Shown here: positions 4,642 to 63,182 of the stretch, piece by piece
Numbering within the stretch: the stretch's first letter is position 1
How the letters are laid out: the number at the start of each line of letters is the position of its first letter
Origin: a virus
Taxonomy: Duplodnaviria; Heunggongvirae; Uroviricota; Caudoviricetes
Strand: one strand, 5' to 3'
Length of the DNA: 64,000 nt
IMG/VR virus record: IMGVR_UViG_3300042549_006728
Translations under genes and position numbers: made by a program
Notes under the pieces: generated by a model
Database searches by the model: none
Seen by the model: only the letters and a program-made list of their open reading frames with translations
Told to the model about the DNA's origin: nothing

Positions 4642-5073
4642 ATGAATAAAAAAATATTATACAGATTAATTTTACTTCTTAATGATTCATTTGGAGAATA
4701 TTCCGTAGATGAATATTATAGTGATAGACATACTTATATGACAGTTTCCGAATTCATACAAAATGATTTAGGTTTTAGTGACTCAGATGAAGTAGATTTT
4801 ATTTACGCATCTTTTTATGAGACATTAAAAAAATTAAATGGAGATTTATCAAATTTTAGTGAAAACGATGTAGTATTACCAATAAAATATGAATTTCGTG
4901 GTGAAAGAAGTTATTTTGCCACAGTCCGATATAACGAAAGTTTCTATTATGACACATACCTACCAGTTATATTAGAATATATGATAGATGAATATATGAT
5001 AAATGAAGACAATGTTGAAACAGATATTAGAGATACTTGGGATCATGAAACAGAAATAGTAAAAGTAAAATAA
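4642..5073 (+). CDS. hypothetical acidic protein
   Basis: 143-aa ORF, first of three coupled plus-strand genes (TAATG overlap with the next). Confidence 0.75.
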   Translation: MNKKILYRLILLLNDSFGEYSVDEYYSDRHTYMTVSEFIQNDLGFSDSDEVDFIYASFYETLKKLNGDLSNFSENDVVLPIKYEFRGERSYFATVRYNESFYYDTYLPVILEYMIDEYMINEDNVETDIRDTWDHETEIVKVK

Positions 5074-5642
5074 TGAACAAATTAATTAAGAGGATTTTAA
5101 AAGAAGAGTTTGAGGTTATAAGTCAATACGAAGAAACTGATTTTTTATCACCTGAAGAAGAGGATTCTTTACCAACTGTTATTTTGGTTGGTGGGTTAGA
5201 TACTGGAGGTTATAAAAATATTACACTACAAAAAAGTTTATTACAAAAAGGTTTGGGTTCAAATTTTAAAGTAATTGCACATAGATGGACTGAGAAAGAA
5301 AACGCAAAAAATTCTATTTTAACTTACCCTAACTCATATGTAGTATTATTCAGTAAGGGTGGGGAATATTCAGAAAGTTTCGCATCCTTTTTAAAAAATA
5401 GTGGTGGTTATTTAAGTAGAATGTATATTGTAGAACCTTATAGTTGCAGTAGTGGTACTAAAAATTCTGTTGATGGTGCAGTATCTAGAGGTGTACCAAA
5501 AAGAAATGTTTTAGGTGGGGGTAGTGACTGCACAGGTAAAAATGTTGCGGGAACTAGAACTACTTGTGGTAGTAAAAAAGGTAATGAAGTTCATTGGTGT
5601 GCGTTGACTGAGGCAGGTGAAATAATATCGTATGGTAGATAA
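5073..5642 (+). CDS. putative alpha/beta-hydrolase-fold protein with N-terminal leader MNKLIKRILKEE
   Basis: VILVGGLD strand, nucleophile-elbow-like VVLFSKGG, acidic IVEP, C-terminal His (VHWC). Confidence 0.65.
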   Translation: MNKLIKRILKEEFEVISQYEETDFLSPEEEDSLPTVILVGGLDTGGYKNITLQKSLLQKGLGSNFKVIAHRWTEKENAKNSILTYPNSYVVLFSKGGEYSESFASFLKNSGGYLSRMYIVEPYSCSSGTKNSVDGAVSRGVPKRNVLGGGSDCTGKNVAGTRTTCGSKKGNEVHWCALTEAGEIISYGR

Positions 5643-5646
5643 AAAT

Positions 5647-6222
5647 ATGAAAAATTTAATTAGAAAAATACTTAAAGAAGATATACCGATATATAAGGAA
5701 AATAATCCTTATAAAAGGATGTATGATAAATTAAGGACTTATTATAACTCTACACCCGAATATGTATTAAAAGATATTTTCTATAATAATTTATTACCAA
5801 ACTCAATGGAGGACATTAAAAAAAATTATTATGGGGATCCTATCTTATTTTTATCTAGATTCGATGGGGGTTACTGGGATAGGTTTCTAAAAGGTTCTTG
5901 GAAATTAGAAATATTAAATGTAAATCCAGAAGACTTTGATGAAAATACTATTAATGCATTTTTAGAAAGGGATTTTGGTAATATAGACTCATATTTAGTA
6001 CCAAAAGATGAAGAAAGAATGTCCACACAAAAACAGTTAGCCAAATCTACTGGTACAAATGAACCTATTATTGTTCTGAAAAATCCTAATGGTAAATATG
6101 AACTTATCGAAGGATGGCATCGAACTATGTCAATATTATTATTAGGTGATAATGGGGAAGATTTGAAGAATTGGGATAAAGTAAAAATTAGAGCTTTTGT
6201 AAAAGATTTAAAAAAATATTAA
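5647..6222 (+). CDS. ParB/Srx-like N-domain protein with leader MKNLIRKILKED
   Basis: NEPIIVLKNPNGKYELIEGWHRTMS matches the ParB/sulfiredoxin (D/E)GxHR motif. Start moved from 5632 to 5647 to begin at the shared leader. Confidence 0.75.
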   Translation: MKNLIRKILKEDIPIYKENNPYKRMYDKLRTYYNSTPEYVLKDIFYNNLLPNSMEDIKKNYYGDPILFLSRFDGGYWDRFLKGSWKLEILNVNPEDFDENTINAFLERDFGNIDSYLVPKDEERMSTQKQLAKSTGTNEPIIVLKNPNGKYELIEGWHRTMSILLLGDNGEDLKNWDKVKIRAFVKDLKKY

Positions 6223-6596
6223 GTATATTTTTTAAAAATTTCTAAATACAACTCTATATTTTTTTTACCTTCAGGATTTGCAGAATGTACATAATATTGT
6301 GGTAATGTATGTTCATTCTCTAAACAATATTCTACTAACCACTTAGCTGAATCATAACCAGTTTTTTCCTCTAAATTCTCATATACAATACTTTTCTGAT
6401 TTTCTTCTAAGTAATGATCATACGATAAATCATGATCGAATGATATAAACTTTGGTAAACCGAATTTCTGTATTGCGTTTATAAATTCGTAATAGTTACG
6501 CACTATAACCCAATCGTCATTTTTTTCATACAATGGATTAATTGTATTTTTAAAAACATCGTAAGGGACTCTTATATCATCTAAAAATAATAACAT
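6219..6596 (-). CDS. cyclic-phosphate-processing receiver-like (cREC) domain protein
   Basis: LFLDDIR, ISFDHDL, TGYDSAKWL and HSANPEG motifs typical of this stand-alone phage receiver family. Confidence 0.75.
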   Translation of the reverse strand: MLLFLDDIRVPYDVFKNTINPLYEKNDDWVIVRNYYEFINAIQKFGLPKFISFDHDLSYDHYLEENQKSIVYENLEEKTGYDSAKWLVEYCLENEHTLPQYYVHSANPEGKKNIELYLEIFKKYT

Positions 6597-6597
6597 A

Positions 6598-6861
6598 TTA
6601 ACAGTATTTTTTATTTAGAAATTCATCAATATCTGCACCACAAGAACAACTCTTAGTTTCCACATTAAATTGACATCCTTTTCTTACACTTAATTTATTT
6701 AACATAAATACGTGTCTTTGGGATTCTAAGTCATTATAGTCTTCATCATACCCAACAACTGTTTTAACCCTCATAGGTTTTAAAATTCTTTCTTTTTTAG
6801 AAATAATATTTAATTTTCTCATTAAAATTAAAACATTAGTCTTTACCCCACCTCTTTCCAT
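6598..6861 (-). CDS. hypothetical protein
   Basis: 87-aa ORF with a Bacteroidota-type promoter directly upstream; C-terminal C-x8-CSC. Confidence 0.65.
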   Translation of the reverse strand: MERGGVKTNVLILMRKLNIISKKERILKPMRVKTVVGYDEDYNDLESQRHVFMLNKLSVRKGCQFNVETKSCSCGADIDEFLNKKYC

Positions 6862-6878
6862 ATATTTTTATTTTAAAA

Positions 6879-6910
6879 CAAATGTATAACAAATTTTTGA
6901 CTATAACAAA
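6879..6910 (-). promoter_or_regulatory. Bacteroidota-type promoter TTTG-N20-TACATTTG
   Basis: Minus strand TTTG ttatagtcaaaaatttgtta TACATTTG, ending 17 nt before ATG 6861. Confidence 0.7.
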
Positions 6911-7851
6911 CTTTCTTTAATTTTTTTTGCGGTAGTTAAAATATCAATGACACCTTTCTTACCTAATTTCTGATTAATGTCTGAAATATCATAACCCTCT
7001 GGTAGTTTAATAATCATAACTCTATTCATAAGTTTAGTAGAGTTTAATCTCTTATATAGTTTAATTGCATCATTATGAGCATCTGAATCTAATAATATGA
7101 TAACCTTACATTCCGCTTTCTTTACCAAACGAATAAATAGGTTTTCACTCATAACTTTACCTAACATTGGTATACTATTAGGTACCACTATGTGATCGAA
7201 TACTCCTTCTACTATGTAGATATTTGAATCCCAAATAACTAAATTTTCGTTAAAAATTATTTCTGATTTAGGTATATCAGGATTTTTATATTTTAGTTTA
7301 CTATATTTATCATAACTCCTACCTAAAAAATAATTAACATCTCCATGTATATCGTATGATGGAAATATTACCCTACCACCATAATCACCATTTTCACAAT
7401 AACCTATATTATATTTTTTTATGGTTTCTAACCCTATATTCCTTTTCTGTAGATACTCCATTGATTTTCTATATCCCTCAGTAAATGTCTCAATCGATAG
7501 TGGTTGGAACTCTTTGGGTAACCCCTCTAATATTTTTATTTCCTCTTTTCTATAGTTATCTATTAAATCAGGAGTTACTAATTTATATTTTTTAATGTCA
7601 GATTTAGTACCATATTGTTTAATTAGTTTATGTATGGATCCATGTGTGTTATTAGTTTCTGAACATGCCCAACATTTATAAACATTACTCTCATAATTTA
7701 TTTCTAAATTACCTTTACCATCTCCTTTATCTAAACCTTTAATATCATAAGAGCATACTGGACAGTCAAAAGAAATTTGTGATTTTTCTCTATAATGTTT
7801 TTTAGATTTACCTAAAACACCTTCTAATATTTCTACTACTAGTTCTGACAT
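6901..7851 (-). CDS. dnaG: DNA primase (Zn finger + TOPRIM)
   Basis: CPVC...CWAC zinc finger, GRVIFP, FLGR, IVEGVFD and LLDSDA TOPRIM motifs. Confidence 0.92.
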   Translation of the reverse strand: MSELVVEILEGVLGKSKKHYREKSQISFDCPVCSYDIKGLDKGDGKGNLEINYESNVYKCWACSETNNTHGSIHKLIKQYGTKSDIKKYKLVTPDLIDNYRKEEIKILEGLPKEFQPLSIETFTEGYRKSMEYLQKRNIGLETIKKYNIGYCENGDYGGRVIFPSYDIHGDVNYFLGRSYDKYSKLKYKNPDIPKSEIIFNENLVIWDSNIYIVEGVFDHIVVPNSIPMLGKVMSENLFIRLVKKAECKVIILLDSDAHNDAIKLYKRLNSTKLMNRVMIIKLPEGYDISDINQKLGKKGVIDILTTAKKIKESLL

Positions 7852-7857
7852 TTAATA

Positions 7858-7865
7858 CAAAGATA
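7858..7865 (-). promoter_or_regulatory. Bacteroidota-type -7 element TATCTTTG
   Basis: TTTTACTATCTTTG, then 6 nt to the primase ATG; no clear -33 TTTG. Confidence 0.55.
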
Positions 7866-7894
7866 GTAAAATTCTAAAGAAAAAAAAATATATT

Positions 7895-7924
7895 AAAAAA
7901 AAATATCGCCTAAAAAGACGATAT
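7895..7924 (-). terminator. intrinsic terminator after the RuvC-like gene
   Basis: Minus-strand RNA AUAUCGUC-UUUUUA-GGCGAUAU (8-bp stem with one G-U pair) followed by a U-run. Confidence 0.7.
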
Positions 7925-7951
7925 CACTAATTATCGGTATTTAAAACGATA

Positions 7952-9910: not shown

Positions 9911-12154
9911 TTAAAAATCTATTGTTAATTCTATTGAAGCCGTGGTAGAATCAGCCAATCTTATTGGTCTCGAAAGTTTACCTACTAAAACTAAGTTTTG
10001 GTTATTGTCTAATATCCCTATTTCACTTATGTATCTATCATCACCAAATTCATAAGTAGGATTACTACTAGATGAAATAGTTGCCCCATCTACGTTTATA
10101 TTAAATAAAGATTTATAAATGGTTGCACCTATATGTGTTCTAAGGTTACCATAGAATAATCTTTCATCACCTAAAGTCATTTTATCATAGTAACTTGCAT
10201 TTGGCATATCTAGTTCTACCCCTAAATTGAAGTTAGTAGATCCTGTGAATAATGAACCTGTCATTATAAATCCAGTGATGTTAGGATTTTGATTTTCAAA
10301 TAAAAGTGGATTTATTGTTTCCCCACTGTTACCTGTAATATTTGGAGATGTGAAGTCCATAACTTTCCAATTAGATGGAACTGGTCTAGACTGACTATTT
10401 AAATCTACTACTTGTGCAATAACTTTAAATGTATCCGCAAAGAAACCAAAACCATCATATAAAACATCTTCTCTTTTTCTCATGTAAGGTAACTCACCTA
10501 AATTGTTTATTCTGAATTGTACATCTTTATCCGAACTAGTTGTATTATCTATTACAGTATATCTTTGAGATGGTAAGAATGGTGTTGTTACAGTTGTTGT
10601 ACCTGTTGATCCTGTTCCTGTATTTTCTAACCAATAAGTTAAATACATTCTTTCACCAGATTTAAGGACACCCGTACAGTTACCATTAACTGGTGTGATT
10701 AATTCCGCAGCCAAATCAGGTAATGTAAAATTCCTATTTGATGCATAAGACATAGATGCAATCAATTCCTCATTATCTATAACTACTATTTGTAATTGTG
10801 GGAATACTTTACCAACTGTTAATGGTAGTGTTGGTGATACAGACATACCACTGTACTCTATTAAATCATAATATTCAATGTCATTATTAGAAGATAATGT
10901 TTTCTTTATAGTATCTGAAGTAAATCTCATTCCTAATGTTGTCCCACTTGCAGTTCCAACATCATTTCTTCTATGCCACATCACTGGTATATCTAAATTT
11001 AATAATTTACCTGTCTCACCGTCAATATAGAATTGTTCCCCATAAAAATTGGAGATACAACTATTTGAATAATGTATAATAGAGATTGATTTTTTATAAG
11101 GATCCATATAACTGATAGATTCGTTAACACCACATATAGATGTACCATCATTTGTATCACATACTAAATTTTCATTATACCCTAAATATTGTTTCGTACC
11201 TGTATATTGTTCTGAACCAAACAAATTATGTTCGTGATAATTTATTGGTGAGTCTTTAAATAATCCCGCAGGATTTTCTGTCCAAACATTATTCATATTC
11301 CAAACAGGTATATTTTCTACACAAATATCACAACTACTATCAAATGACAGAGTTCCTGTATTCCAATATGCAGTTAATGAATTTAATCCATAATAATCAT
11401 CAGTAGGACTATCACCACCAGGTAATGTGTAATATGTAATAATTGTACCCGAATATGCACTTAATGTAGGTAATGTTCTATCTACTCTTATTGTGGATCC
11501 ACTTAAATATGTGATATTATATGTTGTATTTATTGTTGCCGCAGTCATTGTGTCACCAGTGACATTACCCAATGTTGGATTACTAAATCTAAATATTATA
11601 TAATCGTTAACACTTGTTGCCGTTAGAGGTGTGTCTAAAACTAAAATTCCTTGTGTGTAAGTTGTTAAATCATACGAACCATCAAACTTACTCAAATCTA
11701 TTGTTCCGCTTTCTTTTATGAATCTATTTCCTGTTTGAGCAACTAAACCACTGTCTACTGTTGATCCAGAAAAGAATCCTCTATCCTCAGCTTCGTTGGT
11801 TACAATACCTTTTATTAATTGTATATTACTTTGTTGATTTAAAGGGAAAAGAAACTGATTACTTTGGTTCAATAAAAAGGTAGAGAAAAATGGGTTATCG
11901 TCTTTTGGTCTCAATACCTTAGAAAATATATTTTTTTGGATATTCCCATCTGCCTCAACAAAATAAAATTCTCCTGTTGACGCACCTATAGACGGAACAA
12001 ATTCTTTCCACCCCTTAACGTAATTGTAATCCACTTCCGAATCCCCAATTACGTAATTACTGAAAGTTAATTGTCCTTTAGCTAATTGCTCTCTACCAAC
12101 ATCACTTAATTTTACTCTCACTAATGTTGTACTCTGTTTATTGATATAACTCAT
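9911..12154 (-). CDS. putative virion baseplate/tail-fibre collar-type protein
   Basis: N-terminal RVKLSDVGREQL...GDSEVDYN and C-terminal ISEIGILDNNQNLVLVGKLSRPI; G/T/S-rich middle. Confidence 0.6.
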   Translation of the reverse strand: MSYINKQSTTLVRVKLSDVGREQLAKGQLTFSNYVIGDSEVDYNYVKGWKEFVPSIGASTGEFYFVEADGNIQKNIFSKVLRPKDDNPFFSTFLLNQSNQFLFPLNQQSNIQLIKGIVTNEAEDRGFFSGSTVDSGLVAQTGNRFIKESGTIDLSKFDGSYDLTTYTQGILVLDTPLTATSVNDYIIFRFSNPTLGNVTGDTMTAATINTTYNITYLSGSTIRVDRTLPTLSAYSGTIITYYTLPGGDSPTDDYYGLNSLTAYWNTGTLSFDSSCDICVENIPVWNMNNVWTENPAGLFKDSPINYHEHNLFGSEQYTGTKQYLGYNENLVCDTNDGTSICGVNESISYMDPYKKSISIIHYSNSCISNFYGEQFYIDGETGKLLNLDIPVMWHRRNDVGTASGTTLGMRFTSDTIKKTLSSNNDIEYYDLIEYSGMSVSPTLPLTVGKVFPQLQIVVIDNEELIASMSYASNRNFTLPDLAAELITPVNGNCTGVLKSGERMYLTYWLENTGTGSTGTTTVTTPFLPSQRYTVIDNTTSSDKDVQFRINNLGELPYMRKREDVLYDGFGFFADTFKVIAQVVDLNSQSRPVPSNWKVMDFTSPNITGNSGETINPLLFENQNPNITGFIMTGSLFTGSTNFNLGVELDMPNASYYDKMTLGDERLFYGNLRTHIGATIYKSLFNINVDGATISSSSNPTYEFGDDRYISEIGILDNNQNLVLVGKLSRPIRLADSTTASIELTIDF

Positions 12155-34559: not shown

Positions 34560-34943
34560 TTAGAATGTTAAGGTTATAGTATCAGTACTTGCGAAAGTTC
34601 CTTCCGTAACCGTATAAGTTAATTCCACAATTATTAATTCTTCTATATCATCATTTCTAAATGATATATCGTTTATAAGTAAGTTTGGTATATACAGTTT
34701 AATTGTGTCGTTTAAATTATCCCTAATTTGATCATGCGTAATTGCATCATTTGGTTCAAAAATGTATTTTTTTAAATCACTACCGAAATCTGGAAGATAT
34801 AGTCTTTCTCCTTTATTAGTTAGAAGTAAATGCAATAAATCTGATCTAATAGCATCTTTATCAGTTTTATTCATTTTAAAATAAAAACCGTTATCACTAT
34901 CTCTAAAAGGGAAATCTATATTTATATACCTAGTCTTTGCCAT
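34560..34943 (-). CDS. baseplate wedge subunit, T4 gp25-like
   Basis: INIDFPF and LLHLLLTNKGERLYLPDFGSDLKKYIFEP motifs; directly upstream of the gp6-like gene. Confidence 0.9.
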   Translation of the reverse strand: MAKTRYINIDFPFRDSDNGFYFKMNKTDKDAIRSDLLHLLLTNKGERLYLPDFGSDLKKYIFEPNDAITHDQIRDNLNDTIKLYIPNLLINDISFRNDDIEELIIVELTYTVTEGTFASTDTITLTF

Positions 34944-35003: not shown

Positions 35004-36905
35004 TTACTCACATTTAACTTCCATGTTAAATATTGTTCTTTCTAATGGTGAAAATGCTAATACAATAACATTAAAATTTTCATTCTCTTTAGTTATTTTA
35101 AAGGATGTACCCGATTTCATTATACCTTTATATTTAACTATATTATCTTTAATGTTACCTGTTTTAATAATTTCGTCAGTTATTTTTTCTGCTTCAGAAT
35201 CCCCATTTTTGAAAATATCGGTAACATTTAATTTCCCTCCTTTAGATTTAATTGATGCATTGATGCTTTCTAATAAACCATCTTCACGTTTATACATTAT
35301 TAATTCACCAACAAAGTTTCTGACAACATTATCCATTCCACTATAATCATTATCACCCGCATTCAATTCGTCTTTAACAATTTTTTTAACGTAATCAGAT
35401 TGTAATGGTAAAACTTTTTTCTTTTCCAATACACTTAGAGCAACTTGTTTATATTCCATATTATAAACATCACCCATAAATCCACTAAAAAATTCTTGAT
35501 CACCATATTTTAGATAAAATGCGTCTGGAACAACTAATGAGTCAAATGAAATTGTCACTGTGTCTCCTTCACCTACAGGAAAACTACTATCTAGTGACGC
35601 AGCAACAAAGTTATTTTGTTTTGTACCCCTACCACCTTCTTTTTTTGTGGAAGAATTACATTTTATAGGTGGTTTTGGTGTAACACAATTACACGCTTCT
35701 GGAATAGGTTTTACCTTACCTTCAGGGCAATCACATTCTTTTGTCTCCTCATTGTATTTCATTCCATCAGGACATTTACACTTACCATCCTCATCTCTTT
35801 TCATACATTTATTAGGACATTCTTCTGGTGGTAATTTTACACATCTACAATCCTCTGTCTTTTTAAAATCTTTAGGGCAATCACATTCTTTTGTCTCCTC
35901 ATTGAATGTCATTCCTTCTGGACAATCACATTTTTTTGTTTCTTTATTAAATGTCATACAAGGATCTGGACAACTATTACATTCACAATTTTCATCTGCC
36001 TCTTTACCGTTAGGGCAAAAACATTTACCATCTTTTTCTGTTAACCCTTCTTTACATTTACATTTTTTTGTTTGTGTATCCCTAATCATACATTTGGGAC
36101 ACGGATCATTAGGTGTAAAACATAAAATTGCATCTATCATTACAAATTGACCAGCATTTAATTCACCACTTTTAATAGATGCCATTACACTAGAATGTGT
36201 ATCAGTTTTATCAGTAGTATATATTGATCCCGATTCAACTGATTTTACTTCTTGTTTAAAATTATCTGCTACTTTAATATTATTTTGTTGTGCGTACGCA
36301 ACAATTTTATTTGTAAGTTCATCTAAAACTTTTTGTGCTCTTCTTTTTGCTAAATCTTCATTCTTCTTTTTACCTGTAGCATTTTTATCATATGTCGCTT
36401 TCGGAGTTTTATCAAAACCCTTACAACCCGAACCCCAAGGTTTTAATGATTTTATACCAACATTAACATCATATTCGTTACAATATTTAGGTTCTACCGC
36501 AGGAAATTTATTACTATTACTACCTTTCCAGTAATTACTAGCACCACCAAATACATTAATGTCCTCAACAGTGAACTGTCCATCTTCAAATAAACCAAAT
36601 TGTTCTTCTACTTTTTGTTTAAATTTTTGGAAGAATTTTTCAGGTACTTCGGTATTTACATCACTTTCAGTGTTATATCTTTCAGTGTTTGTAATATAAA
36701 CACAATTTTTTTTATCTGTTTTTTTTAACTCAGTAGTAGGTTCTGGTTTAGTTTCTGTAGATTTATTACTATCATTTGTTTTAGTTTCCGCAGGTTTAGA
36801 TGAAACCCCTTGAACTGAGGAAGTACTCACTTCATTAATATTTGAGGTGCTATCATACACCATTAAAGACTTAATTCTTTGCAACTCTTCAAAAAGATTC
36901 TTCAT
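35004..36905 (-). CDS. leader-bearing protein with OmpA-like segment and CxC Cys-rich repeats
   Basis: Leader MKNLFEELQRIKSLM; FGGASN...NEDLAKRRAQKVLDEL (OmpA-C-like); 26 Cys over 35658-36122; C-terminal SFDSLVVPDAFYLKYG domain. Confidence 0.75.
   Translation of the reverse strand: MKNLFEELQRIKSLMVYDSTSNINEVSTSSVQGVSSKPAETKTNDSNKSTETKPEPTTELKKTDKKNCVYITNTERYNTESDVNTEVPEKFFQKFKQKVEEQFGLFEDGQFTVEDINVFGGASNYWKGSNSNKFPAVEPKYCNEYDVNVGIKSLKPWGSGCKGFDKTPKATYDKNATGKKKNEDLAKRRAQKVLDELTNKIVAYAQQNNIKVADNFKQEVKSVESGSIYTTDKTDTHSSVMASIKSGELNAGQFVMIDAILCFTPNDPCPKCMIRDTQTKKCKCKEGLTEKDGKCFCPNGKEADENCECNSCPDPCMTFNKETKKCDCPEGMTFNEETKECDCPKDFKKTEDCRCVKLPPEECPNKCMKRDEDGKCKCPDGMKYNEETKECDCPEGKVKPIPEACNCVTPKPPIKCNSSTKKEGGRGTKQNNFVAASLDSSFPVGEGDTVTISFDSLVVPDAFYLKYGDQEFFSGFMGDVYNMEYKQVALSVLEKKKVLPLQSDYVKKIVKDELNAGDNDYSGMDNVVRNFVGELIMYKREDGLLESINASIKSKGGKLNVTDIFKNGDSEAEKITDEIIKTGNIKDNIVKYKGIMKSGTSFKITKENENFNVIVLAFSPLERTIFNMEVKCE
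35724..35904 (-). repeat. 31-bp perfect direct repeat 150 bp apart (50-aa Cys-module duplication)
   Basis: agggcaatcacattcttttgtctcctcattg at 35724-35754 and 35874-35904; encodes NEETKECDCP twice. Confidence 0.92.
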
Positions 36906-36975: not shown

Positions 36976-37542
36976 ATGAAAAATTTAATCATCATCCTAT
37001 TATTTTTAAATCCTTTTGTGGATTTTTCTCAAAATCTTTTTACTAAAGAAGAAATTTTACTTGCCACAGAAGGTGGGGATAGATGGCATAAGGATATTAA
37101 AATATCTTTATATGGTAACTACAGTAAACAAGATTCTTTAGATGTAGTTGAAAACATTAAGATTTTTAAACCATTAATAAAACCTATCAATATTAGTATG
37201 GTTAAAAATATTGATTCCGCCAATGTAGTTATTTATTTCTTAACTGATGATGAGTTTGGGACTAAGTTCAAATGGAGTAAAGAATTTGTTAAGTTAAGTA
37301 TAGGTCAATCTTTTATAGAACCTATTAAATACTCAATTAAACGTGTTGATATTCATATAGATATTGTTGAAAATAAAGAATTTAAATCTTTTTCTAATAC
37401 AATTAGACATGAAATGTTTCATATGTTAGGTTTTTATCATTATAGTAAAGAGAATAATTCTATATTAGATCACGATCATTATTTAACTGAAAAAGATAAA
37501 CAAATGATAAAATATCTTTATTCAGATAAATTTAAGGTATAA
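36976..37542 (+). CDS. putative exported zinc metalloprotease (zincin)
   Basis: Start moved to ATG 36976 (downstream of the promoter); signal-peptide-like MKNLIIILLFLNPFVDFSQ; HEMFHMLGFYH = HExxHxxGxxH. Confidence 0.75.
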   Translation: MKNLIIILLFLNPFVDFSQNLFTKEEILLATEGGDRWHKDIKISLYGNYSKQDSLDVVENIKIFKPLIKPINISMVKNIDSANVVIYFLTDDEFGTKFKWSKEFVKLSIGQSFIEPIKYSIKRVDIHIDIVENKEFKSFSNTIRHEMFHMLGFYHYSKENNSILDHDHYLTEKDKQMIKYLYSDKFKV

Positions 37543-44882: not shown

Positions 44883-45626
44883 TTAGTCTTCTTCCTTATC
44901 TTTATAATTAAAAGAACTTTTTATTTCATTCCTATCAAAATTTTCTACATCACTTTGTCTTAGAACATATTCTTCTTCGTTTTCTTCAGTGGCTTCATAA
45001 CCTTCTTTGTCTTTCCAAAAATCTGTTAATTTTACACTATATGGGAATGATTGCATAGATCTCATTTCTAATCTTTCTACTGGAGTAGGATTTCTTTTTT
45101 CAATTTCCTTTTCTAAAGTTTCTATTTTATCAATTACTTTATCCATACCAGATACTTGATTTTCAAGATCTGTTAATTTTGTTAATAATTCATCCATTTT
45201 AGTACTAACTCCTTCAACTGAAGTTTTTGTTGCTTCTGTATTATCAACAATATCTGTGACATCTACCTCTACTGTATCTTCACCAGATTCAACTTCTGTA
45301 TCGGCAAATTCATCTTCAATCTCCACATCCTCTTCTTCACCTTCTTCTGGTTCTTTATCAGTTTTGGTATCTCCTTCAGGTGCAGGTGTTTCTGTTTTTG
45401 ATTCGGCTCCAGGTGCGGGTGGTGGGGGTGGAGGTGTTGTAGTCTCTTCATCCGCCACATCCATAAATGGATCATCACCAGCAGGATCTTGTTCAGTTAA
45501 AAAAGAATCATCAAGTAATAAATCACCATTCTCATCTTTTTCCTTATCTTCAGGAACATAAAAAGTATATTCTAAAAGTTGTTTATATCTTTTTAAATCC
45601 TCAGAAATCAATTTTTTATTATTCAT
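44883..45626 (-). CDS. acidic leader-bearing protein, possible prohead core/scaffold
   Basis: Leader KKLISEDLKRYKQLLEY, FLTEQ site, poly-Pro and E/D-rich linker, coiled coil. Confidence 0.6.
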   Translation of the reverse strand: MNNKKLISEDLKRYKQLLEYTFYVPEDKEKDENGDLLLDDSFLTEQDPAGDDPFMDVADEETTTPPPPPPAPGAESKTETPAPEGDTKTDKEPEEGEEEDVEIEDEFADTEVESGEDTVEVDVTDIVDNTEATKTSVEGVSTKMDELLTKLTDLENQVSGMDKVIDKIETLEKEIEKRNPTPVERLEMRSMQSFPYSVKLTDFWKDKEGYEATEENEEEYVLRQSDVENFDRNEIKSSFNYKDKEED

Positions 45627-52909: not shown

Positions 52910-55900
52910 TTAAGTTAAACCATTTTCAGTGATAGTAAATGTTTTATTTACTGTAGTTGTTTTTTTATTCTTAGAAAGATATGCGGTTACTTCAACTGAA
53001 GAGGATACACTACCCTCATATTTTTTTAATTCTTTCTCTTTATCATTAAAATCGTTTTCTGCTTTTTTTAATTGTGCGTTAGTAATTGTATTATCACCAT
53101 TTACTTTTTGAGTTTTTAAAACAATATAGGCTGCCAATGCATCTTCAACTGCCTTTTTTTTCACCGTTAATGTTTCAAAATTAACTATCTTACCCTTAAA
53201 TTTTGGATTTTCTTCTGAACAATCTATGTCAAATGAGGTTGCAGTATTAAGAGATGTACCATCATCTGAAGACTTACCTACTTTTACTTTCACTACTATT
53301 GAATTGTCTGGCGATTTTTCACCATCGATTTCAATATCAGATGCTGCTTTACCGTCTTTTGTTTTCACCACTATTTTACTTGGTTTTTCTACCGATATAT
53401 CTAAAACACCTGTATTTTCACTACCTTTACCGTTATCAGAATTTTCATTATCTTTAGTTTGATTAACAATACCTTCTTTTTTAAGACTATTTATATACTT
53501 GTTAAGATTTTCTTCACCAACCAATTGTTTTTTAAGTTCTCCTAATTTTATACCGTCAATAACTTTTCCTGTATTATAATCTACTTTATCTGATCTTACA
53601 TCATACATTTCTGTATTTGCGTAATAATTAAATGATACTGCATTTTGTAATCTATTAAGTGGTCCAACTAATGAATGTCCACCTATATAATCAATACCTA
53701 ATGATACTGTCGCAATCATAGGTTGGACACCGATGCCTTCAGGATTTAAATCCCATTGTGGTCCATCATATGTTATAGATAAACTATTAATTGCTACTTT
53801 AGTATGGAAAAAATCCCCAATCCTTAATATACATATAGGAGGTCTACCAAATGATAAATTTTGTGGTTGTACACCTACTTCTGTACCATCTTTTTGGGTT
53901 ACCCTATCATAAATACTTGGACCTTGCCTCATACACTGATTTAAAAACGTCAACCTACTATTGAATCCTTCAGGTGTAATACTATGAAATCCAGCATGAA
54001 AATATTTTATTTTTTCTGAAATATATTTAAAATAATTTGGGTAATTTTCATCTATAAAGTCAAAATATGTCCCTTCATCTATAATTAGATTATCAATTAG
54101 TCTAATATCTTCTGGAATAGTGAAAGAACCATCGTCTTTTTCTTCCTCTTTTGGTTGGGAATCTTTAGAATTTTTTGTATCATTTTCCATTACTACATCA
54201 ACTCTATATGAATTAGTATCCTCAGTAGATAATGATGAATTACCTTTAGATTCAATAGGACTTATATTAGATATTAATTTTGGATCAATGCCTGAAGATT
54301 TTAATCTACTATCAATTTCCGATTTTACTATATCCGCAAATTCTTTACTTAATTTTGTTCCGTCATCACCTGTTGGGGTACCGAAACTATCTACAGTAGC
54401 CCCTACTCCAACCCAACCATTTAATGTTATTTTTACTTTAGGGTTAGTATTACCACTTTGTTTTTCAACAAATTCTTTTATTAATGTTACTATGGAAGTT
54501 AAATCAGTTTCAGAAGGAGTTCTTTTAGCTTTACAATTTTCAGTGGATGAGTCACAATTAACATCTTGTTCAAAAATTACTCTACCATCTTTCTTTGAAC
54601 TTTCAACATCAACTTTTTTTTGTGGTTCTTTTTCTTTAATTTTCTTTTTTATTTCTTCTAAATCACTTTGAGGTACAGAACATTCTAATGCCCTTAAAAA
54701 TTCATCTGGTGTAGCACAACCCGCAAAAAATCTTTCGGTTAAATTAGTACTATTTCCCCTATAACAATTAATAACTCTAGGGTGGTCAACAATTATTTTA
54801 AAACTTAATGATCCTGATCTACTTGAATTATTATATGTATATACTGGTTCACTTCTACCGATAAAATCAGTTTTGTTCCAATTTGCGGAAGTATTCTCAT
54901 CAAAAGTTAATTCATATGGAGGAAACCACATTATTCTTCCTTTGTTACCACTTAATAAATCACCAGGTCCAATTTCACTTAATGGTAAATCTGCCAAATT
55001 ATCTGTCCAAGCCAAATTTTCTATGGATAACATAAATTTTTTACGTGTGGTACTTGAGTCTAATATAGAGGGGTGAATTTTCGGAATACCATTACTCATC
55101 AATACACTTTGAGATGCCTGATTATTTGACACTGAAAATCCTTGTAAGTCTATACTAGGTGAACTAAATAATCCAGTATTTCTTATAGCGTTTGCGTAAC
55201 TATATCTATCGTTAACTGTCCATACTCTACAGAAATTACCATTTCCATCTATATCTATTAAATCAAGTGTTTTAATTGCGTTACCTCTACTTATTACCCT
55301 ATTTTGTTCTTTATCTTTAAAATATTTTTTAGTCTGATTTATAAAAACATCATTCTGAAAATCATTAACTAATTGTTGAGTTTTATATAATAATGTCTTC
55401 TCATTGAAATTTTGTTCCCCACCTGTTGTCCAGAAAAATTTATTATCTTCACCGAAAGGTTCACCGATACCCTCAACTGTAGTCCTTTTAGCGTTACCTG
55501 AAGTATCCACCGCACCATTAAAATCGGCACTTGTAAATTTTTTAGTTATTAAACTACCTCTATTAGTATTTTTTTCCGTACCAACATAATATCTTGAATT
55601 TAAACCTGCGTCAGATGTACCCGCCAACCTTCTATCTTCATATAACGGTCTATAATCATTTCTATTCATTAGATTAAATGCAAATGAAACTTGTGTCGAA
55701 CTAGTTCTACTCAATAATGTATTCATTCTTATTTCAGTAGACAGAGTTGGTTCTACACCTTCTTGTATATCTAAATCTGATTTTATTAATTCTGATCCTG
55801 ATTTCGCACTACTATTGTACTCATTCCACCCAACTGCGTTATTGGGTAATGTGTTGAAGAATTGATCACTACCTCTTAGTTTATTAACATAATTGTCAAC

Positions 55901-56515
55901 AATGTTCCCAATAGGTTCAGTTATAAATCCAGTTTTTTTATTGGAGTTACCTGTTTCTTCAGAAATTTGTGATATTTTATTTAAAATTGTTTTTTCTAAT
56001 TCTTGTCCACCTATTAAACCTAATGAACTTTCTCTTTGGAAATTTAATGATTTATATGTGTCAATAACATTAAAAGGAAATTTTACACCTTTTTGATCAC
56101 CTTTATTAATTAGAAAAAATTGTTCTTGATTATAAAATGATGGGTAGTCATCTCTTACTTTTTCACCAAATCCTTCAGGTAGTGGATATCCTAATTTAGG
56201 TGGATATGAAAATTCAAAAACTTCATATACATCATCTTGTGGTATATATCTATTAAAATTAACATTTTGTGTTGTTCTATATAAATTACCTAATGGGAAT
56301 AATCTTTTATTTACATCATAATGAACTGGAATATTTTCATTGGCTTCACCATTTACTGGTACACTTATAACTGTTCCAATATCCTGTAATTTAGAAACTA
56401 ATCCTGATTGTGTTAATGTTTCATTAACTGGTAAAGGTAAATTTCTATTTAATAGACTATTTCTAAATCCTTGTGTAGAATAGATACCTTTATTATAATC
56501 TAATATTCCTGCCAT
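52910..56515 (-). CDS. baseplate tube-initiator-like protein (gp48/gp54-type fold) with OmpA-like insertion
   Basis: FPPYELTFDENTSANWNKTDFIGRSEPVYTYNNSSRSGSLSF and PPICILRIGDFFHTKVAINSLSITYD tube-fold halves flank an OmpA-like segment. Confidence 0.6.
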   Translation of the reverse strand: MAGILDYNKGIYSTQGFRNSLLNRNLPLPVNETLTQSGLVSKLQDIGTVISVPVNGEANENIPVHYDVNKRLFPLGNLYRTTQNVNFNRYIPQDDVYEVFEFSYPPKLGYPLPEGFGEKVRDDYPSFYNQEQFFLINKGDQKGVKFPFNVIDTYKSLNFQRESSLGLIGGQELEKTILNKISQISEETGNSNKKTGFITEPIGNIVDNYVNKLRGSDQFFNTLPNNAVGWNEYNSSAKSGSELIKSDLDIQEGVEPTLSTEIRMNTLLSRTSSTQVSFAFNLMNRNDYRPLYEDRRLAGTSDAGLNSRYYVGTEKNTNRGSLITKKFTSADFNGAVDTSGNAKRTTVEGIGEPFGEDNKFFWTTGGEQNFNEKTLLYKTQQLVNDFQNDVFINQTKKYFKDKEQNRVISRGNAIKTLDLIDIDGNGNFCRVWTVNDRYSYANAIRNTGLFSSPSIDLQGFSVSNNQASQSVLMSNGIPKIHPSILDSSTTRKKFMLSIENLAWTDNLADLPLSEIGPGDLLSGNKGRIMWFPPYELTFDENTSANWNKTDFIGRSEPVYTYNNSSRSGSLSFKIIVDHPRVINCYRGNSTNLTERFFAGCATPDEFLRALECSVPQSDLEEIKKKIKEKEPQKKVDVESSKKDGRVIFEQDVNCDSSTENCKAKRTPSETDLTSIVTLIKEFVEKQSGNTNPKVKITLNGWVGVGATVDSFGTPTGDDGTKLSKEFADIVKSEIDSRLKSSGIDPKLISNISPIESKGNSSLSTEDTNSYRVDVVMENDTKNSKDSQPKEEEKDDGSFTIPEDIRLIDNLIIDEGTYFDFIDENYPNYFKYISEKIKYFHAGFHSITPEGFNSRLTFLNQCMRQGPSIYDRVTQKDGTEVGVQPQNLSFGRPPICILRIGDFFHTKVAINSLSITYDGPQWDLNPEGIGVQPMIATVSLGIDYIGGHSLVGPLNRLQNAVSFNYYANTEMYDVRSDKVDYNTGKVIDGIKLGELKKQLVGEENLNKYINSLKKEGIVNQTKDNENSDNGKGSENTGVLDISVEKPSKIVVKTKDGKAASDIEIDGEKSPDNSIVVKVKVGKSSDDGTSLNTATSFDIDCSEENPKFKGKIVNFETLTVKKKAVEDALAAYIVLKTQKVNGDNTITNAQLKKAENDFNDKEKELKKYEGSVSSSVEVTAYLSKNKKTTTVNKTFTITENGLT

Positions 56516-58844: not shown

Positions 58845-58845
58845 A

Positions 58846-59343: not shown

Positions 59344-59357
59344 AACATATTTTTATA

Positions 59358-59366
59358 TATAAATAT
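59358..59366 (-). promoter_or_regulatory. putative late-promoter motif ATATTTATA
   Basis: 14 nt before ATG 59343. Confidence 0.5.
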
Positions 59367-59379
59367 TCTATTTTTTAGT

Positions 59380-59523
59380 TTATTCTTTTGGTATTAGATA
59401 ATCTATATAATATTTACGCATATAAGTTGGCATAATCAGAATATCTGAATATGAAAAACCTCTATTAACTAAAAATAATATCTCCCTAAGAAGATATTGT
59501 TGATGGTTAGATGTCAGGCCAAA
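59380..59523 (-). CDS. tail-assembly-chaperone C-terminal extension (gpGT/gp51-like), probably reached by frameshift
   Basis: +1-frame segment FGLTSNHQQYLLREILFLVNRGFSYSDILIMPTYMRKYYIDYL overlaps the end of the 258-aa gene; no convincing start of its own. Confidence 0.6.
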   Translation of the reverse strand, partial: FGLTSNHQQYLLREILFLVNRGFSYSDILIMPTYMRKYYIDYLIPKE

Positions 59524-60283
59524 ATAAATTTTTATTGATTCTAAGAAAGGTATTAACGGACTCTCCCCCCTGAGTCCTAGCAATGACATTAAAATTAATT
59601 CCTGGCTCAATCTCTAACAAATACTTATTAAGATTTCTAATATCCATGATAGGTAACGCTTTTAAAATATTGGATATTTTAATCTTATCTCTTTCACCGT
59701 CTATATCCATTATCGATCTTTCTAATCTTAAAGTTGTTTTAGTAGAAATTTCATTTTTAGACCTTTCCATAATTTGTTGATCTAAAATTTCTATTTCTTC
59801 CTCATCTTTACCTGTCAATAATCTAAATTTTAAATTTTTATTTGATTTAGGAAGAATGAAATCAAATAACCCATTTTCGTCTGGTTTAACAGTTAATTTT
59901 TTTTGTTCTAAAGTAGATAAATCAACCTCCCCTTCTACCACCTTTTTAGAAAAAGGATCAATAATAGGTTGTATATATTTTTCACCAAATGCAGAAACTC
60001 TTAAGAAAATAATTATTGCCATTCTATCACCTTCCAAAAGTAACTTATGATCAAATCCTAAATCTTTAACTTTTCTTTCTAATAAAACATCTATAAGTTT
60101 CCCACTAGCCAATATATTTGGTGATGTCAATATGTTCTCATCAAAAGCAGTTAAGTATTCTACTTTAATTTTATCTTTTTTATTTGGGTATAATAAACCT
60201 TGTGAAGGTAATTCTATTATATCGTAAGGTACCTTATAATCTTCAGGTACAAAGTTTGGGTCATTAAAGCTATTTTTATCCAT
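59507..60283 (-). CDS. T4 gp26-like baseplate hub assembly / tail assembly chaperone
   Basis: IELPSQGLLYP, YLTAFDENIL, LLEGDRMAIIIFLRVSAFG, FRLLTGKDE and C-terminal FWP. Confidence 0.75.
   Translation of the reverse strand: MDKNSFNDPNFVPEDYKVPYDIIELPSQGLLYPNKKDKIKVEYLTAFDENILTSPNILASGKLIDVLLERKVKDLGFDHKLLLEGDRMAIIIFLRVSAFGEKYIQPIIDPFSKKVVEGEVDLSTLEQKKLTVKPDENGLFDFILPKSNKNLKFRLLTGKDEEEIEILDQQIMERSKNEISTKTTLRLERSIMDIDGERDKIKISNILKALPIMDIRNLNKYLLEIEPGINFNVIARTQGGESVNTFLRINKNLFWPDI
59519..59527 (-). other. candidate +1 ribosomal slippery site TTA TTT TGG
   Basis: Frame 0 TTT-TGG becomes TTT-GGC in +1, which is open for 47 codons. Confidence 0.5.
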
Positions 60284-60319
60284 ATTATAAAACTATTTAT
60301 TAATTATTAAAAGTAAATA

Positions 60320-62488
60320 TTATACTATTTCTATTGGTTCAACAAGAACTTCTATTTTACCAAACATTTTATCTAATTCATTTTGATCGATAACTTTATT
60401 GGTATCTACATCATCATCAAAATCGTCTGGATCTACAATTATACCACCTTCTGATCCTGCATCAACTTCTCTTTTCTTATTCCAATACTCTGAACAAGTT
60501 TGATCTAATTTATTTTCTAAATCTACTAATTTCCCAACAGATAAAGGTTTCCCATCTACACTTGTTTTAGGTAAAAATCCCGCTATTAATTCGTCAACTG
60601 TTGGGACTTTGGGGAATGCACCACCGACCAATGGGGTATTTCTTAAAAAATCACTTATGTCTTTGAACCATTCATTATCTCTTTCTTTACCTTTAAATTG
60701 TTCATTAGTTTCTTTTTCAAAATTTTGTAAAGATTCCTTTAAGTATTTTATACGCTCTCTTAATTTTGTAGATTTACCTTCTTTATCATTACAAAAATCT
60801 TCAATTTCTTTTTGATTCCATGAGGCAATATTTACTATATTATTATATTCTACACTAAATTCTTCTAATGCCGTCATATATTCATCTTTTTTATTAAAAA
60901 AAGCGTCTACTTTTTGGTTACATTCACTTATACAACTATTAGTATTAGCATTACCATAACCGAATTTACTTTCACATTTTGATCTACATCTAGCGTAACC
61001 AATTTTCCTTAAATTTTCTAAATCTCTTTTAACAGATTTCAGTGGTTCTACTACTAAAAATCCTAAAGGATGATACTTCCATAGTTTACTATTACCATAA
61101 TCGGCACCTGCAGTCATTATTAAGGATTCTGAATCAGGTAAACTACCTCTTTGGGTTGATACATAAATTTCATTTAAACTAATTAAAGCGACTTGTTCTA
61201 CCACAATTATTCTAAGGACATCTTCTATATTTTTCATTCTTTTACCTGACCAACCTTCAGCATTTTTAGGCATGTTATAGTCAACAAAACTAAATCTTTT
61301 ATTACTATATAACTTTTTTCCTGAAGTAAGAAAACGAACCACTTTTAAACTTTCAGATATTGTTGGGAATATATATCTAAAAGTTTGTCCTAGTTTATCG
61401 TTAATTTTACCCGCAAAATTATTTTTTGGGGTATTGTCTACAATTGTTTTTTGTATTATTGGGTTTTCACCACTAGTTGGATCTACGTCAAAGTCTTTAA
61501 TAGGACTCGATGGTGGAGTAACATCTATAGGTTTTAAATTTTTCTGACTAATTAAATTTAAATTATCATCAAATATCAATTCAAACCCCTCAACAATATT
61601 AACACTTCTATAACCACCATTTGGTAATTTTACTATTAATACTTTCCCACCGTCAATTTCTTTTGCTAATCCTTCAGGTGTAATACTTCTCCCTTTTCCG
61701 TCACCTAAATTTTTAAGTGCTCGTTCAATAGCATCTATTATTTCACCTTTTATTACATCAGGATTACCATTCGCATTTATTTCATCTGTTGTTGCTTTAG
61801 TTGGTCCAGCAGAAGAACCACCATCAACACCATCATAATAGTCATTTACTTCCTTACTAGCACTATTAGGATCATATGTATCATCTTTTTTAATATTATC
61901 ACCTTCTATTTTATAAGTTTCTATTTTTTCTTTACCACCCACAGTCTCTACTTTATGAACAACATTTTCACCTGTATTAGATTTAGTAACTATGGTAGTT
62001 TTAGATTTAGTTTTTGGTGGTGTATATTTACCTTTACTTTCTTTCCATAAATCAAATACCATACCTCTTAAATCACCTTCAGCGGGTAAATCATTTATCA
62101 CCTGTAAGATTAATTTATCATCCGCAGTTTTTAAGAATCCACTATCTGACCATTTTTTAAATGATAAAATTGCGTCATTTGCGTAATCCCAGTTAATGCC
62201 CATAGATCTCCATAAAGATTTATAGTCGTTTAAATGTCTAGCTAAATCATCAAAAGTATTAATTTCGGCATTTAAAAAATTAGTTGCAAGTTTTGGGTCA
62301 ACATTTTTAATAGCTTTTGCAACTGAAGAACTAGCCGTCTCTAATGCATCAGATAATCTTCTACCAATACCTTGTTCAGTTAATAGTTTATTTTCTTTTA
62401 AATTACCATATAATCTTTCCTCAGTAAATAAAGATTTAATTCTCTTCATTTCTTCATTTAAATTATTATATTTTTTTTTCATATTCAT
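60320..62488 (-). CDS. leader-bearing putative internal head/ejected protein
   Basis: Leader NNLNEEMKRIKSLFTEERLYGNLKENKLLTEQ; 722 aa, mostly helical with amphipathic segments. Confidence 0.6.
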   Translation of the reverse strand: MNMKKKYNNLNEEMKRIKSLFTEERLYGNLKENKLLTEQGIGRRLSDALETASSSVAKAIKNVDPKLATNFLNAEINTFDDLARHLNDYKSLWRSMGINWDYANDAILSFKKWSDSGFLKTADDKLILQVINDLPAEGDLRGMVFDLWKESKGKYTPPKTKSKTTIVTKSNTGENVVHKVETVGGKEKIETYKIEGDNIKKDDTYDPNSASKEVNDYYDGVDGGSSAGPTKATTDEINANGNPDVIKGEIIDAIERALKNLGDGKGRSITPEGLAKEIDGGKVLIVKLPNGGYRSVNIVEGFELIFDDNLNLISQKNLKPIDVTPPSSPIKDFDVDPTSGENPIIQKTIVDNTPKNNFAGKINDKLGQTFRYIFPTISESLKVVRFLTSGKKLYSNKRFSFVDYNMPKNAEGWSGKRMKNIEDVLRIIVVEQVALISLNEIYVSTQRGSLPDSESLIMTAGADYGNSKLWKYHPLGFLVVEPLKSVKRDLENLRKIGYARCRSKCESKFGYGNANTNSCISECNQKVDAFFNKKDEYMTALEEFSVEYNNIVNIASWNQKEIEDFCNDKEGKSTKLRERIKYLKESLQNFEKETNEQFKGKERDNEWFKDISDFLRNTPLVGGAFPKVPTVDELIAGFLPKTSVDGKPLSVGKLVDLENKLDQTCSEYWNKKREVDAGSEGGIIVDPDDFDDDVDTNKVIDQNELDKMFGKIEVLVEPIEIV

Positions 62489-62498
62489 ATATTTTATG

Positions 62499-63182
62499 TT
62501 AATGTTGTAATAATTTTAATATTTCTGTTTTATCCATACCCTTATTGAGAACATTACCATTAACAATATTACTACTATTTAGATAATAAGTAAGGACATC
62601 ACCAAATTTTAATACACCTGAAGGTATATTCATAGAACTAGATTCACTACTACTAATTGTCACATCTACTAAACTACCTGAACCATCTTTCTTTTTAAAT
62701 GGTGAATTTTCCCAATCAGAGCTACCTCCTTTAAAAACACCTACATATTTAAAGGTAGAGGTTCCGCCTTTTATTTTGATGTCGGTACCATCACATTCGT
62801 ATTTTGATCGGTACATTAATTTTTTACTACCATTTTCTGGATTTAATAAAAAAGTTAATATTAATTGATTATCGGAATAAAATGTTAAATGAAAAGTAGG
62901 TATACCACTTGTTTTATAATTACTTTTAGCCAATACGAAACAATCTTCTACAGTATTACCAGCAGAAGCAACAGATATTCTACCACTTACATCTGATAAA
63001 GCTTGTTTTGTACATTTTATATTGTCGTTACTATCACATATATTTTCAGATTCAGTAGGATTAAAAACTTTATATCCATTAGATTCTAAATCTTCCTCAC
63101 ATTGTTCTAAATCTCCACCACATTGTTCTTTAAGCAACATTAAAGTTTTAATTCTATTTAATTGCTCCGTTAAGTTCTTCAT
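62499..63182 (-). CDS. leader-bearing putative internal head protein
   Basis: Leader MKNLTEQLNRIKTLMLLKEQ. Confidence 0.65.
   Translation of the reverse strand: MKNLTEQLNRIKTLMLLKEQCGGDLEQCEEDLESNGYKVFNPTESENICDSNDNIKCTKQALSDVSGRISVASAGNTVEDCFVLAKSNYKTSGIPTFHLTFYSDNQLILTFLLNPENGSKKLMYRSKYECDGTDIKIKGGTSTFKYVGVFKGGSSDWENSPFKKKDGSGSLVDVTISSSESSSMNIPSGVLKFGDVLTYYLNSSNIVNGNVLNKGMDKTEILKLLQH

Follow-up and report, generated by a model that had tools for sequence, protein, structure and literature searches.

The stretch of DNA analysed here (the window; 64,000 nucleotides) corresponds to bases 126744-190743 of one 253,879-bp IMG/VR virus record (IMGVR_UViG_3300042549_006728), which is a distant T4-like giant phage, uncultured and marine. 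Otherwise unrelated proteins encoded in the window begin with one of two short leaders, termed type A and type B, and these leaders are probably portable prohead-address tags, which would target proteins to the capsid and be clipped off by the prohead protease. What appears to be new in this variant of the T4 capsid-targeting-sequence (CTS) principle is the link between the core of the type B leader and the C-terminal helix of the scaffold protein. A broader proposal, that a small code of interchangeable terminal helices loads about a tenth of the proteome into the capsid, one of them being a transplanted scaffold docking helix placed at either protein end, is advanced more tentatively. Below, "window" denotes positions in the 64,000-nt stretch and "genome" positions in the 253,879-bp record.

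The record has a G+C content of 29%, is estimated to be 78% complete, and contains 878 open reading frames (ORFs) and a 339-gene proteome of 79,324 residues. All six leaders quoted in a preliminary description of the window were confirmed in place as the first residues of long ORFs. Its division into two leader types was an undercount that took in only the type A and B members of the window; the genome also has classes C1, C2, D and E. Altogether about 40 of the 339 genes are tagged, with six leaders of type A, nine of type B, 13 of C1, five of C2, three of D and two of E. Type A has the 11-residue format M-K-x-h-I-[KR]-[KR]-I-L-K-E, the type B core is R-[IM]-K-x-L-M, and the 13 C1 proteins share the consensus MKIIITE[NS]Q[FY]K[RK]LI[NK]E. 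Outside the window, class D leaders of the form ..IYL[ND]KI[VL][EK][YW][LF]VDD occur at genome 15334, 21384 and 26047, and class E leaders of the form ..KIKR[QE][VM]I[LM]EAN[RK][KR]LL[GN]E at genome 5198 and 119971. Also outside the window, a predicted lipoprotein of 72 amino acids (genome 229726-229944, minus strand) has a signal peptide with an LTSC lipobox and carries the C1-like motif ITERQYDRILKRAYKE directly behind the lipobox, not at the N-terminus.

An unbiased all-against-all comparison returned 57 high-scoring pairs for residues 2-31 versus two for residues 42-71. It clustered eight type B leaders, to which the divergent leader of window gene 44883-45626 was added. When a hidden Markov model (HMM) of seven type B leaders was run against the 878 ORFs, all seven were recovered at E<=4e-5, with every match falling at residues 1-8, and the next ORF scored 0.31. 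The dissimilarity of the sequences behind the leaders, claimed in the preliminary description, was borne out: past residue 45 the tagged proteins show no BLASTP similarity at E<=1e-3 except within two paralog pairs, one distant and one close. Leader codons differ synonymously between tagged genes, and conservation is therefore at the protein level; a reading of the leaders as DNA-level repeats was rejected on the same ground.

The genome encodes a head module of T4 type. Near the contig end, two small genes, a protease, a very acidic coiled-coil protein of 435 amino acids and the capsid protein follow one another in the T4 order 67-68-21-22-23. The capsid protein (585 amino acids; genome 248884-250641, minus strand) belongs to the gp23 family (PF07068, E=4e-62). 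The gp21-like protease that the preliminary description expected elsewhere in the genome is present in this module; it was recognized by PF03420 (Peptidase_S77, E=4.4e-24) and by the PHROG head maturation protease family (E=1.7e-39), is 32% identical to T4 gp21 over 170 residues, and conserves the motifs around the His (...HP...) and Ser (...SSRG...) residues. An S77 protease was found in all but one of the related records that are at least 65% complete. The N-terminal propeptide of the capsid protein aligns with that of T4 gp23, with L57-L58-N59-E60/S at the place of F-L-T-E/A in T4, and this L-L-N-E60/S junction is nearly invariant among 23 sequences. Relative to T4 gp23, the capsid protein is enlarged by a long, variable insertion of roughly 200 residues, which contains Cys and follows the conserved N-terminal region. 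By this protein, the nearest cultured relatives are Flavobacterium phage immuto, Microcystis phage Mel-JY01 and Rhodothermus phage RM378. The lineage abounds in metagenomes, where it is represented by at least 8,000 capsid-protein clusters, and its hosts probably belong to the Flavobacteriia.

The protein at the gp22 position, the 435-residue putative scaffold, ends in NLNE followed by STAYVDPQITAIKDLMRRIS. A proteome-wide search for [MI]K[DNST]L[MF] matched six type B leaders, one trivial site at M1, and otherwise only a site within the last nine residues of the scaffold. The homologous scaffold of 11 related records ends in LIE/SKTYENPQF[LK]RMKDLM.K.K, whose hexapeptide RMKDLM recurs in IMG/VR leaders such as NLLEQLNRMKDLMVYEKG (NRMKDLMVY). 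Within the genome studied, the best leader match to the scaffold tail is that at genome 9647 (NRIKDMMRIVSE versus the terminal TAIKDLMRRIS), and the likeness is moderate. A leader-only HMM ranks scaffold C-termini next after the true leaders, with single E-values of 0.4-2.6 that are not significant and scaffolds that are mutual orthologues. The C-terminal register Q-h-x-R-h-[KQ]-x-L-[MA]-x-x-h-K, ending at the stop codon, is shared by the scaffold of this genome and those of the sister lineage G001, immuto, Mel-JY01 and RM378. Protease C-termini (..KMKNLMGKLDSFL..) were also considered as type B look-alikes; they occur in one clade only and were not used as evidence.

The tag/scaffold pair is strong in immuto, which, as judged by sequence, represents an independent lineage with a different version of the motif. 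The immuto protein gp067 (NC_055915 125626-126867), annotated as "DNA polymerase phi-like protein", is encoded between the prohead protease and the major capsid protein and is homologous to the scaffold described here (E=5e-12); given this position and homology to the scaffold-position protein, gp067 is most likely a misannotated head scaffold. It ends in IISE followed by VSEQVSRWQKLAGIIK (tail SEQVSRWQKLAGIIK). Two other immuto proteins, gp083 (NC_055915 111675-112139) and gp230 (NC_055915 25061-25456), begin with MKKQILSEQFRRMQKLAGIITE and MKKQILSEQFKRMQFLAGIITE, respectively, each followed by S, and both fit MKKQILSEQF[RK]RMQ[KF]LAGIITE. Throughout the 50,630 residues of the immuto proteome, QKLAG is confined to two places, the N-terminus of gp083 and the C-terminus of the scaffold. 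With the immuto scaffold tail as query, the two leaders scored 48 and 41, compared with a 95th percentile of 18.6 and a next hit of 26; the scaffold N-terminus, used as a control query, found no leaders. In cross-genome queries, both the genome studied and G001 yielded MMG[IV]I[NT]E-subtype leaders of type B, and the immuto leader therefore belongs to the same tag family.

The scaffolds of the two other cultured relatives end in the same way, with ILNE followed by SNNVVERMKKLAGIVK (ERMKKLAGIVK) in Mel-JY01 and SVE followed by DPLLDLERIKRLAGL (ERIKRLAGL) in RM378. A search of these two genomes with the pattern R-x-[KQ]-[KR]-L-A-G matched the Mel-JY01 scaffold alone and no leaders. Since Mel-JY01 and RM378 share the feature, a terminal helix preceded by [LIV]-x-E is, by this comparison, an old property of these scaffolds that type B has copied. 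The likeness of the type B core to the scaffold and the co-variation of the two are real at the level of sequence, and they point to the prohead rather than elsewhere.

Several observations show how the leaders relate to the proteins that bear them. Among nine A1 orthologues, residues I5, I8, L9, K10 and E11 are invariant, residues 13-32 vary, and the linker behind the leader varies or is deleted; the 16 B6 orthologues keep M15, L16, E19, Q20 and C21. These orthologue sets span 43-93% identity, and by this measure the leaders are under purifying selection. B5 and its paralog at genome 193636-196632 have different leaders, of type B and of the C-like form MSKLFSEKEIKKLKKFL, respectively, and their 67% identity starts exactly at N-x-L-[LI]-[TS]-E-Q-GIGRRL. 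Because leader residues are invariant, linkers drift and paralogs have swapped leaders, the tag can be described from these alignments as a separable unit whose boundary is marked by the conserved L-x-E.

The same modularity extends to other records. A scan of IMG/VR with the back-translated type B core gave at least 116 stretches (119 matches listed), of which 91 of the 119 matches listed lie within a few residues of the first Met of an ORF; the unique ORFs represent at least 20 cargo families. At least about 18 matches (12 distinct proteins) place the tag at the extreme C-terminus behind a Lys/Glu-rich linker, and in these copies N-L-x-E precedes the tag. Among the carriers are M23-peptidase-like proteins of about 180-225 residues (loci L018, L020, L023, L024, L051 and L081) that end in NLNEEINRIKELLK, with the type B helix following a hydrophobic stretch and a Lys/Glu-rich linker. 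For type A, at least 144 matches were found, 108 of them strictly N-terminal and typically MK[ND]LI[KR][KR]ILKEE, none C-terminal among the matches listed, and with cargo from at least 43 families. In another related record, a 118-amino-acid protein (L134:11171-11527, plus strand) bears the type C2 motif KKIVRLSERELIRIIKEIINEQLK at its C-terminus, and C-type tags can therefore sit at either protein end. Most cargo families have no homologs in G001, including B3, B5 and B6.

In T4, gp21 cleaves L/I-x-E behind the Glu, a stretch of 10 residues at the start of IPIII is enough for packaging, and gp21 and Alt also lose C-terminal pieces (PMC9026906, PMC5694885, PMC3012670). The earlier claim that the leaders end in (L/I)-x-E held at the sequence level, each leader leading into such a site more often than the background would give. 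Type A ends in an invariant I-L-K-E. In type B, [LI]-x-E occurs within 27 residues of the core in all nine proteins, where the background is 0.33 for each; taking the nine as independent, the chance of this is about 4e-5, and it rises to about 1e-3 when they are counted as six independent families. Among the type B examples listed from IMG/VR, 42 of 49 have [LI]-x-E within 28 residues. In every scaffold examined (five lineages), [LIV]-x-E lies 13-20 residues before the end.

Taken as a mechanism, the prohead-address explanation would run as follows. Late in infection, tagged proteins would co-assemble with the scaffolding core of a T4-type prohead. Type A would act as an 11-residue leader in the format of the T4 CTS. 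Type B would copy the amphipathic helix with which the gp22-position scaffold terminates; the terminal helix is presumed to anchor the scaffold in the prohead, so that proteins with the same helix would come along, and because type B carries this copy it would dock where the scaffold tail docks, at the capsid inner face or the core. Tag and cargo would then be separated by the gp21-type protease, cutting behind the Glu of the intervening (L/I)-x-E; comparable predicted cut sites are found just before the terminal helix of the scaffold and at the end of the capsid propeptide. The freed cargo would remain in the head and exit with the DNA. We infer docking, cleavage, presence in the virion and ejection from the genes, and the use of such a tag to load foreign proteins, suggested earlier, would be an extrapolation from T4.

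With respect to expression, the T4 late-promoter consensus TATAAATA precedes none of the tagged genes. Of 299 untagged genes, 53 have the heptamer TATTTAT at a distance of 10-55 bases upstream (about 3% expected), among them those for the sheath, tube, protease and baseplate, as do 14 of the 40 tagged genes; examples in the window precede genes 34560-34943, 52910-56515 and 9911-12154, all on the minus strand. TATTTAT may be a late-promoter element, and its presence is at most suggestive of late co-expression of the tagged genes.

The capsid-loading interpretation of the preliminary description is thus supported in part, by the protease, the modularity, the (L/I)-x-E sites and the scaffold likeness, and a number of points weigh against it. 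The T4 CTS MKTYQEFIAE (N-termini of ipI, ipII and ipIII, NC_000866) shares its format but no sequence similarity with the tags, and the baseplate/tail operons that contain B3, B5 and B6 are strictly conserved. With about 11% of all genes tagged, the number is far above what T4 packages. Scaffold tail and leader resemble each other over a short span of 6-14 residues, and the motif was defined post hoc in this genome. The identity of the scaffold itself is derived from synteny, acidic coiled-coil composition and mutual homology; neither BLASTP nor profile searches matched it to T4 gp22, Pfam or PHROGs. Head-module proteins from 12 relatives were also searched with HMMs of types A, C1 and C2, and none resembled these tags. 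(L/I)-x-E is a low-information motif that occupies 1.5% of positions. Finally, no virion proteome, N-terminal sequences or expression timing of tagged proteins was found in the literature for this lineage or for immuto.

Two alternatives assign the tags to another cellular or virion address. The tags might be helices for docking or oligomerisation in general, with no tie to the virion (binding a chaperone, a membrane patch, a host factor or the degradation machinery), in which case the scaffold likeness would be a matter of coiled-coil chemistry. We regard this as unlikely. It would account for the short, amphipathic character of the tags, for the large number of tagged proteins (about 40), many of which are small and encoded in early-looking clusters of small genes at 2-65 kb, for the C1-like motif behind a lipoprotein signal peptide at genome 229726-229944, and for the fact that TATTTAT, common to structural genes, precedes only 14 of 40 tagged genes. 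However, it has difficulty in explaining the co-variation with the scaffold tail across lineages and the proteome-wide uniqueness of the motif, and the strict siting at extreme termini together with the conserved (L/I)-x-E boundary fits a removable address. The other alternative, that type B tags route proteins into the tail or baseplate (tube lumen, hub) for delivery to the cell wall, like the N-terminal loading signals of extracellular contractile injection systems, is conceivable because the synteny of B3 with the gp25-like gene and of B6 and B5 with the hub-like gene is conserved, although its probability is low. A gp25-like gene lies downstream of B3, the first gene of the gp25/gp6 operon, in all 21 related loci; relatives keep the synteny of B6, B5 and the hub-like gene; the tube and sheath genes have other tagged genes as their neighbours; and some carriers have a wall-directed appearance, such as B3 with its weak OmpA-like stretch and the M23-peptidase-like proteins with a C-terminal tag. 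On the other hand, the sole look-alike of the tag in three proteomes is the scaffold C-terminus rather than any tail protein, counterparts of B3, B5 and B6 are missing from G001 despite the same virion architecture, five type B genes (genome 9647, 36828, 225860 and 227668, and window 44883) are located outside tail operons, and the conserved (L/I)-x-E junction would have no role.

The remaining alternatives are far less probable. A shared leader could be the recognition sequence of a modifying enzyme, as in ribosomally synthesized and post-translationally modified peptides (for instance a radical-SAM/SPASM maturase), since the use of one maturase for many precursors through a common leader is a known logic. 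This is very improbable: the tags are found on proteins of 90-1000 residues, and the record contains no such enzyme, PF04055 having no match in the 254-kb record as opposed to 14 of 14 control genomes, an absence that is not absolute as the record is 78% complete. The least probable explanation denies any function to the leaders and attributes them to AT-rich codon bias at gene starts (MK(K/N)-rich N-termini) or to recombination scars. It agrees with the 29% G+C and with the many genes that start with MK(K/N), but is opposed by the 16-fold enrichment of N-termini in similar pairs relative to control segments, by HMM E-values that fall four orders of magnitude after the leaders, by leader residues that stay invariant across 43-93% identical orthologues while codons are synonymous, and by the recurrence of the same motif at C-termini. 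On these sequence comparisons, chance or codon bias is excluded as the cause of the leader likeness.

Several known systems are comparable to the putative prohead-address tags, although no publication describing the tags was found in the literature searched. The closest is the CTS of T4 IPI, IPII, IPIII and Alt, which is removed by gp21 (Mullaney and Black 1996, as reviewed in PMC9026906, PMC3012670 and PMC5694885). In both cases short N-terminal leaders with an (L/I)-x-E end precede otherwise unrelated proteins, and the phage studied here has a gp21-family protease and a head module in T4 order; type A comprises 11 residues compared with 10 in T4, and C-terminal propeptides are known in T4 as well (gp21, Alt). 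In contrast to the handful of tagged proteins in T4, there are several tag classes and about 40 tagged proteins here, known from genes alone, and type B spans 19-45 residues to the cut site, occurs at either protein end and copies the C-terminal helix of the scaffold. The polymorphic internal-protein loci of T-even phages encode varied defence-countering proteins with only the CTS in common (PMC3012670). The phage described here resembles them in its varied, fast-turning-over cargo united only by the tag, and differs in the much larger scale, the other host group (probably Flavobacteriia) and the lack of any cargo match to IPI. The giant phages phiKZ, 201phi2-1 and SPN3US have long N-terminal propeptides on ejection proteins (PMC5694885, PMC10052503). 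They, too, process many head-internal proteins after Glu by a gp21-related protease, and the SPN3US paralogs gp53 and gp54 have identical N-termini; however, their propeptides are mostly longer than 100 residues, are cleaved at S/A-x-E and do not form a short tag across unrelated families.

A counterpart of type B exists in engineered P22, where cargo fused to the coat-binding C-terminal part of the scaffolding protein gets encapsidated (PMC9962691). In both, a terminal scaffold helix would serve as the address for procapsid entry, and type B resembles a natural version of this principle. The P22 fusion is man-made and uses a large scaffold fragment, whereas the helix found here is natural, has 13 residues, occurs on many proteins, mostly at the N-terminus, and has a predicted protease release site. 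Herpesvirus and HK97 proteases are also targeted via a C-terminal tail. The cargo-loading peptides of encapsulins are similar in being short terminal peptides (C or N) with flexible linkers, varied cargo and an HK97-fold shell; they involve no protease step and no DNA and have an unrelated motif and evolutionary context, which leaves an analogy of mechanism only.

The tagged genes of the window are listed in the following table; besides them the window contains mainly the baseplate/tail module (gp6-, gp25-, gp53- and hub-like PHROG hits) and replication genes.

Table. Leaders and leader-bearing genes in the window (window positions; aa, amino acids; AF2, AlphaFold2 model)
Feature	Position	Strand	Description	Remarks
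A1 leader	5073..5105	+	Type A, MNKLIKRILKE, residues 1-11, ends L-K-E	Leader sequence MNKLIKRILKEE
A1	5073..5642	+	189-aa cargo, alpha/beta domain, function not assigned	
A2 leader	5647..5679	+	Type A, MKNLIRKILKE	Leader sequence MKNLIRKILKED
A2	5647..6222	+	191-aa cargo, weak ParB/Srx-like C-terminal motif	
B3 leader	36831..36905	-	Type B, MKNLFEELQRIKSLMVYDSTSNINE, residues 1-25, ends I-N-E	
B3	35004..36905	-	633 aa: disordered linker, weak OmpA-like stretch, Cys-rich repeats, C-terminal domain	
B7 leader	45492..45626	-	Divergent type B, residues 1-45, ends F-L-T-E before Q	
B7	44883..45626	-	247-aa very acidic coiled-coil protein, prohead-core-like composition	Sub-threshold matches, all to coiled-coil families
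B5 leader	62375..62488	-	Type B, residues 1-38; L-K-E at 30-32, L-T-E at 36-38	
B5	60320..62488	-	722-aa cargo, family not assigned	
B6 leader	63126..63182	-	Type B, MKNLTEQLNRIKTLMLLKE, residues 1-19	Detached low-confidence helix (AF2)
B6	62499..63182	-	227-aa cargo, beta-rich domain	AF2
C1-leader gene	63339..64000	-	3' part of a 612-aa gene with C1 leader MKKKIFITENQYKRIFLKEE at the N-terminus	Leader at genome 191920, just outside the window

The cargo labels of the preliminary description were retained only in weakened form. When 18 tagged proteins were compared with Pfam and PHROG, nothing exceeded the cut-off save weak ParB-like hits (PHROG E=1e-5), the OmpA match (E=0.08) is below cut-off, and "hydrolase-like" corresponds to a generic alpha/beta fold. 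For A1, which has no Pfam or PHROG family, the AlphaFold2 model has a predicted local distance difference test (pLDDT) score of 69 and its fold matches are weak and lipase/SGNH-type, with template modelling (TM) scores below 0.5 in PDB, AlphaFold database (AFDB) clusters and BFVD; "hydrolase-like" is a weak hint here because these model-based fold searches gave no convincing relatives. The A2 ORF opens at 5632, with the ATG at 5647 following the upstream stop, and its best match to PHROG ParB-like families (E=1.2e-5) covers residues 135-180.

Among the type B genes, B3, which opens the gp25/gp6 baseplate operon, had no tblastn match in 50,697 phage records. In B3-homologous leaders, I-x-E followed by [VI]-S-T is kept in 35 IMG/VR loci among the matches listed. 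On the opposite strand, window 36976-37542 (plus) adjoins B3 and encodes a 188-amino-acid protein with an N-terminal signal-like segment and the zinc-metallopeptidase motif HEMFHxxGxxH; its Pfam matches to DUF2927, SprT-like and astacin families are weak and all below cut-off. The B7 homolog in G001 keeps the I-T-E/Q junction while its leader has drifted. In the B6 model, pLDDT exceeds 90 for most of residues ~80-227 (134 residues in all), and the domain had no structural match in PDB or BFVD at E<=0.001; as modelled, it may be a new fold.

Phage proteins injected with the DNA are a main route to disarm host defences, and outside T4 and a few giant phages they can be found only by virion proteomics of cultured phages. 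The link between tag and scaffold helix provides a concrete, testable docking mechanism and suggests that tags arise by copying the scaffold tail; the idea is directly testable because the cultured phage immuto carries the clearest tag/scaffold pair. If correct, the prohead-address explanation would add a natural, protease-releasable loading tag that is distinct from the T4 CTS and forms a counterpart to engineered scaffold-fusion loading. Packaged cargo could then be listed from sequence alone in a lineage with at least 8,000 metagenomic capsid-protein clusters, and the injected arsenal of thousands of uncultured phages would become readable directly from their sequences.

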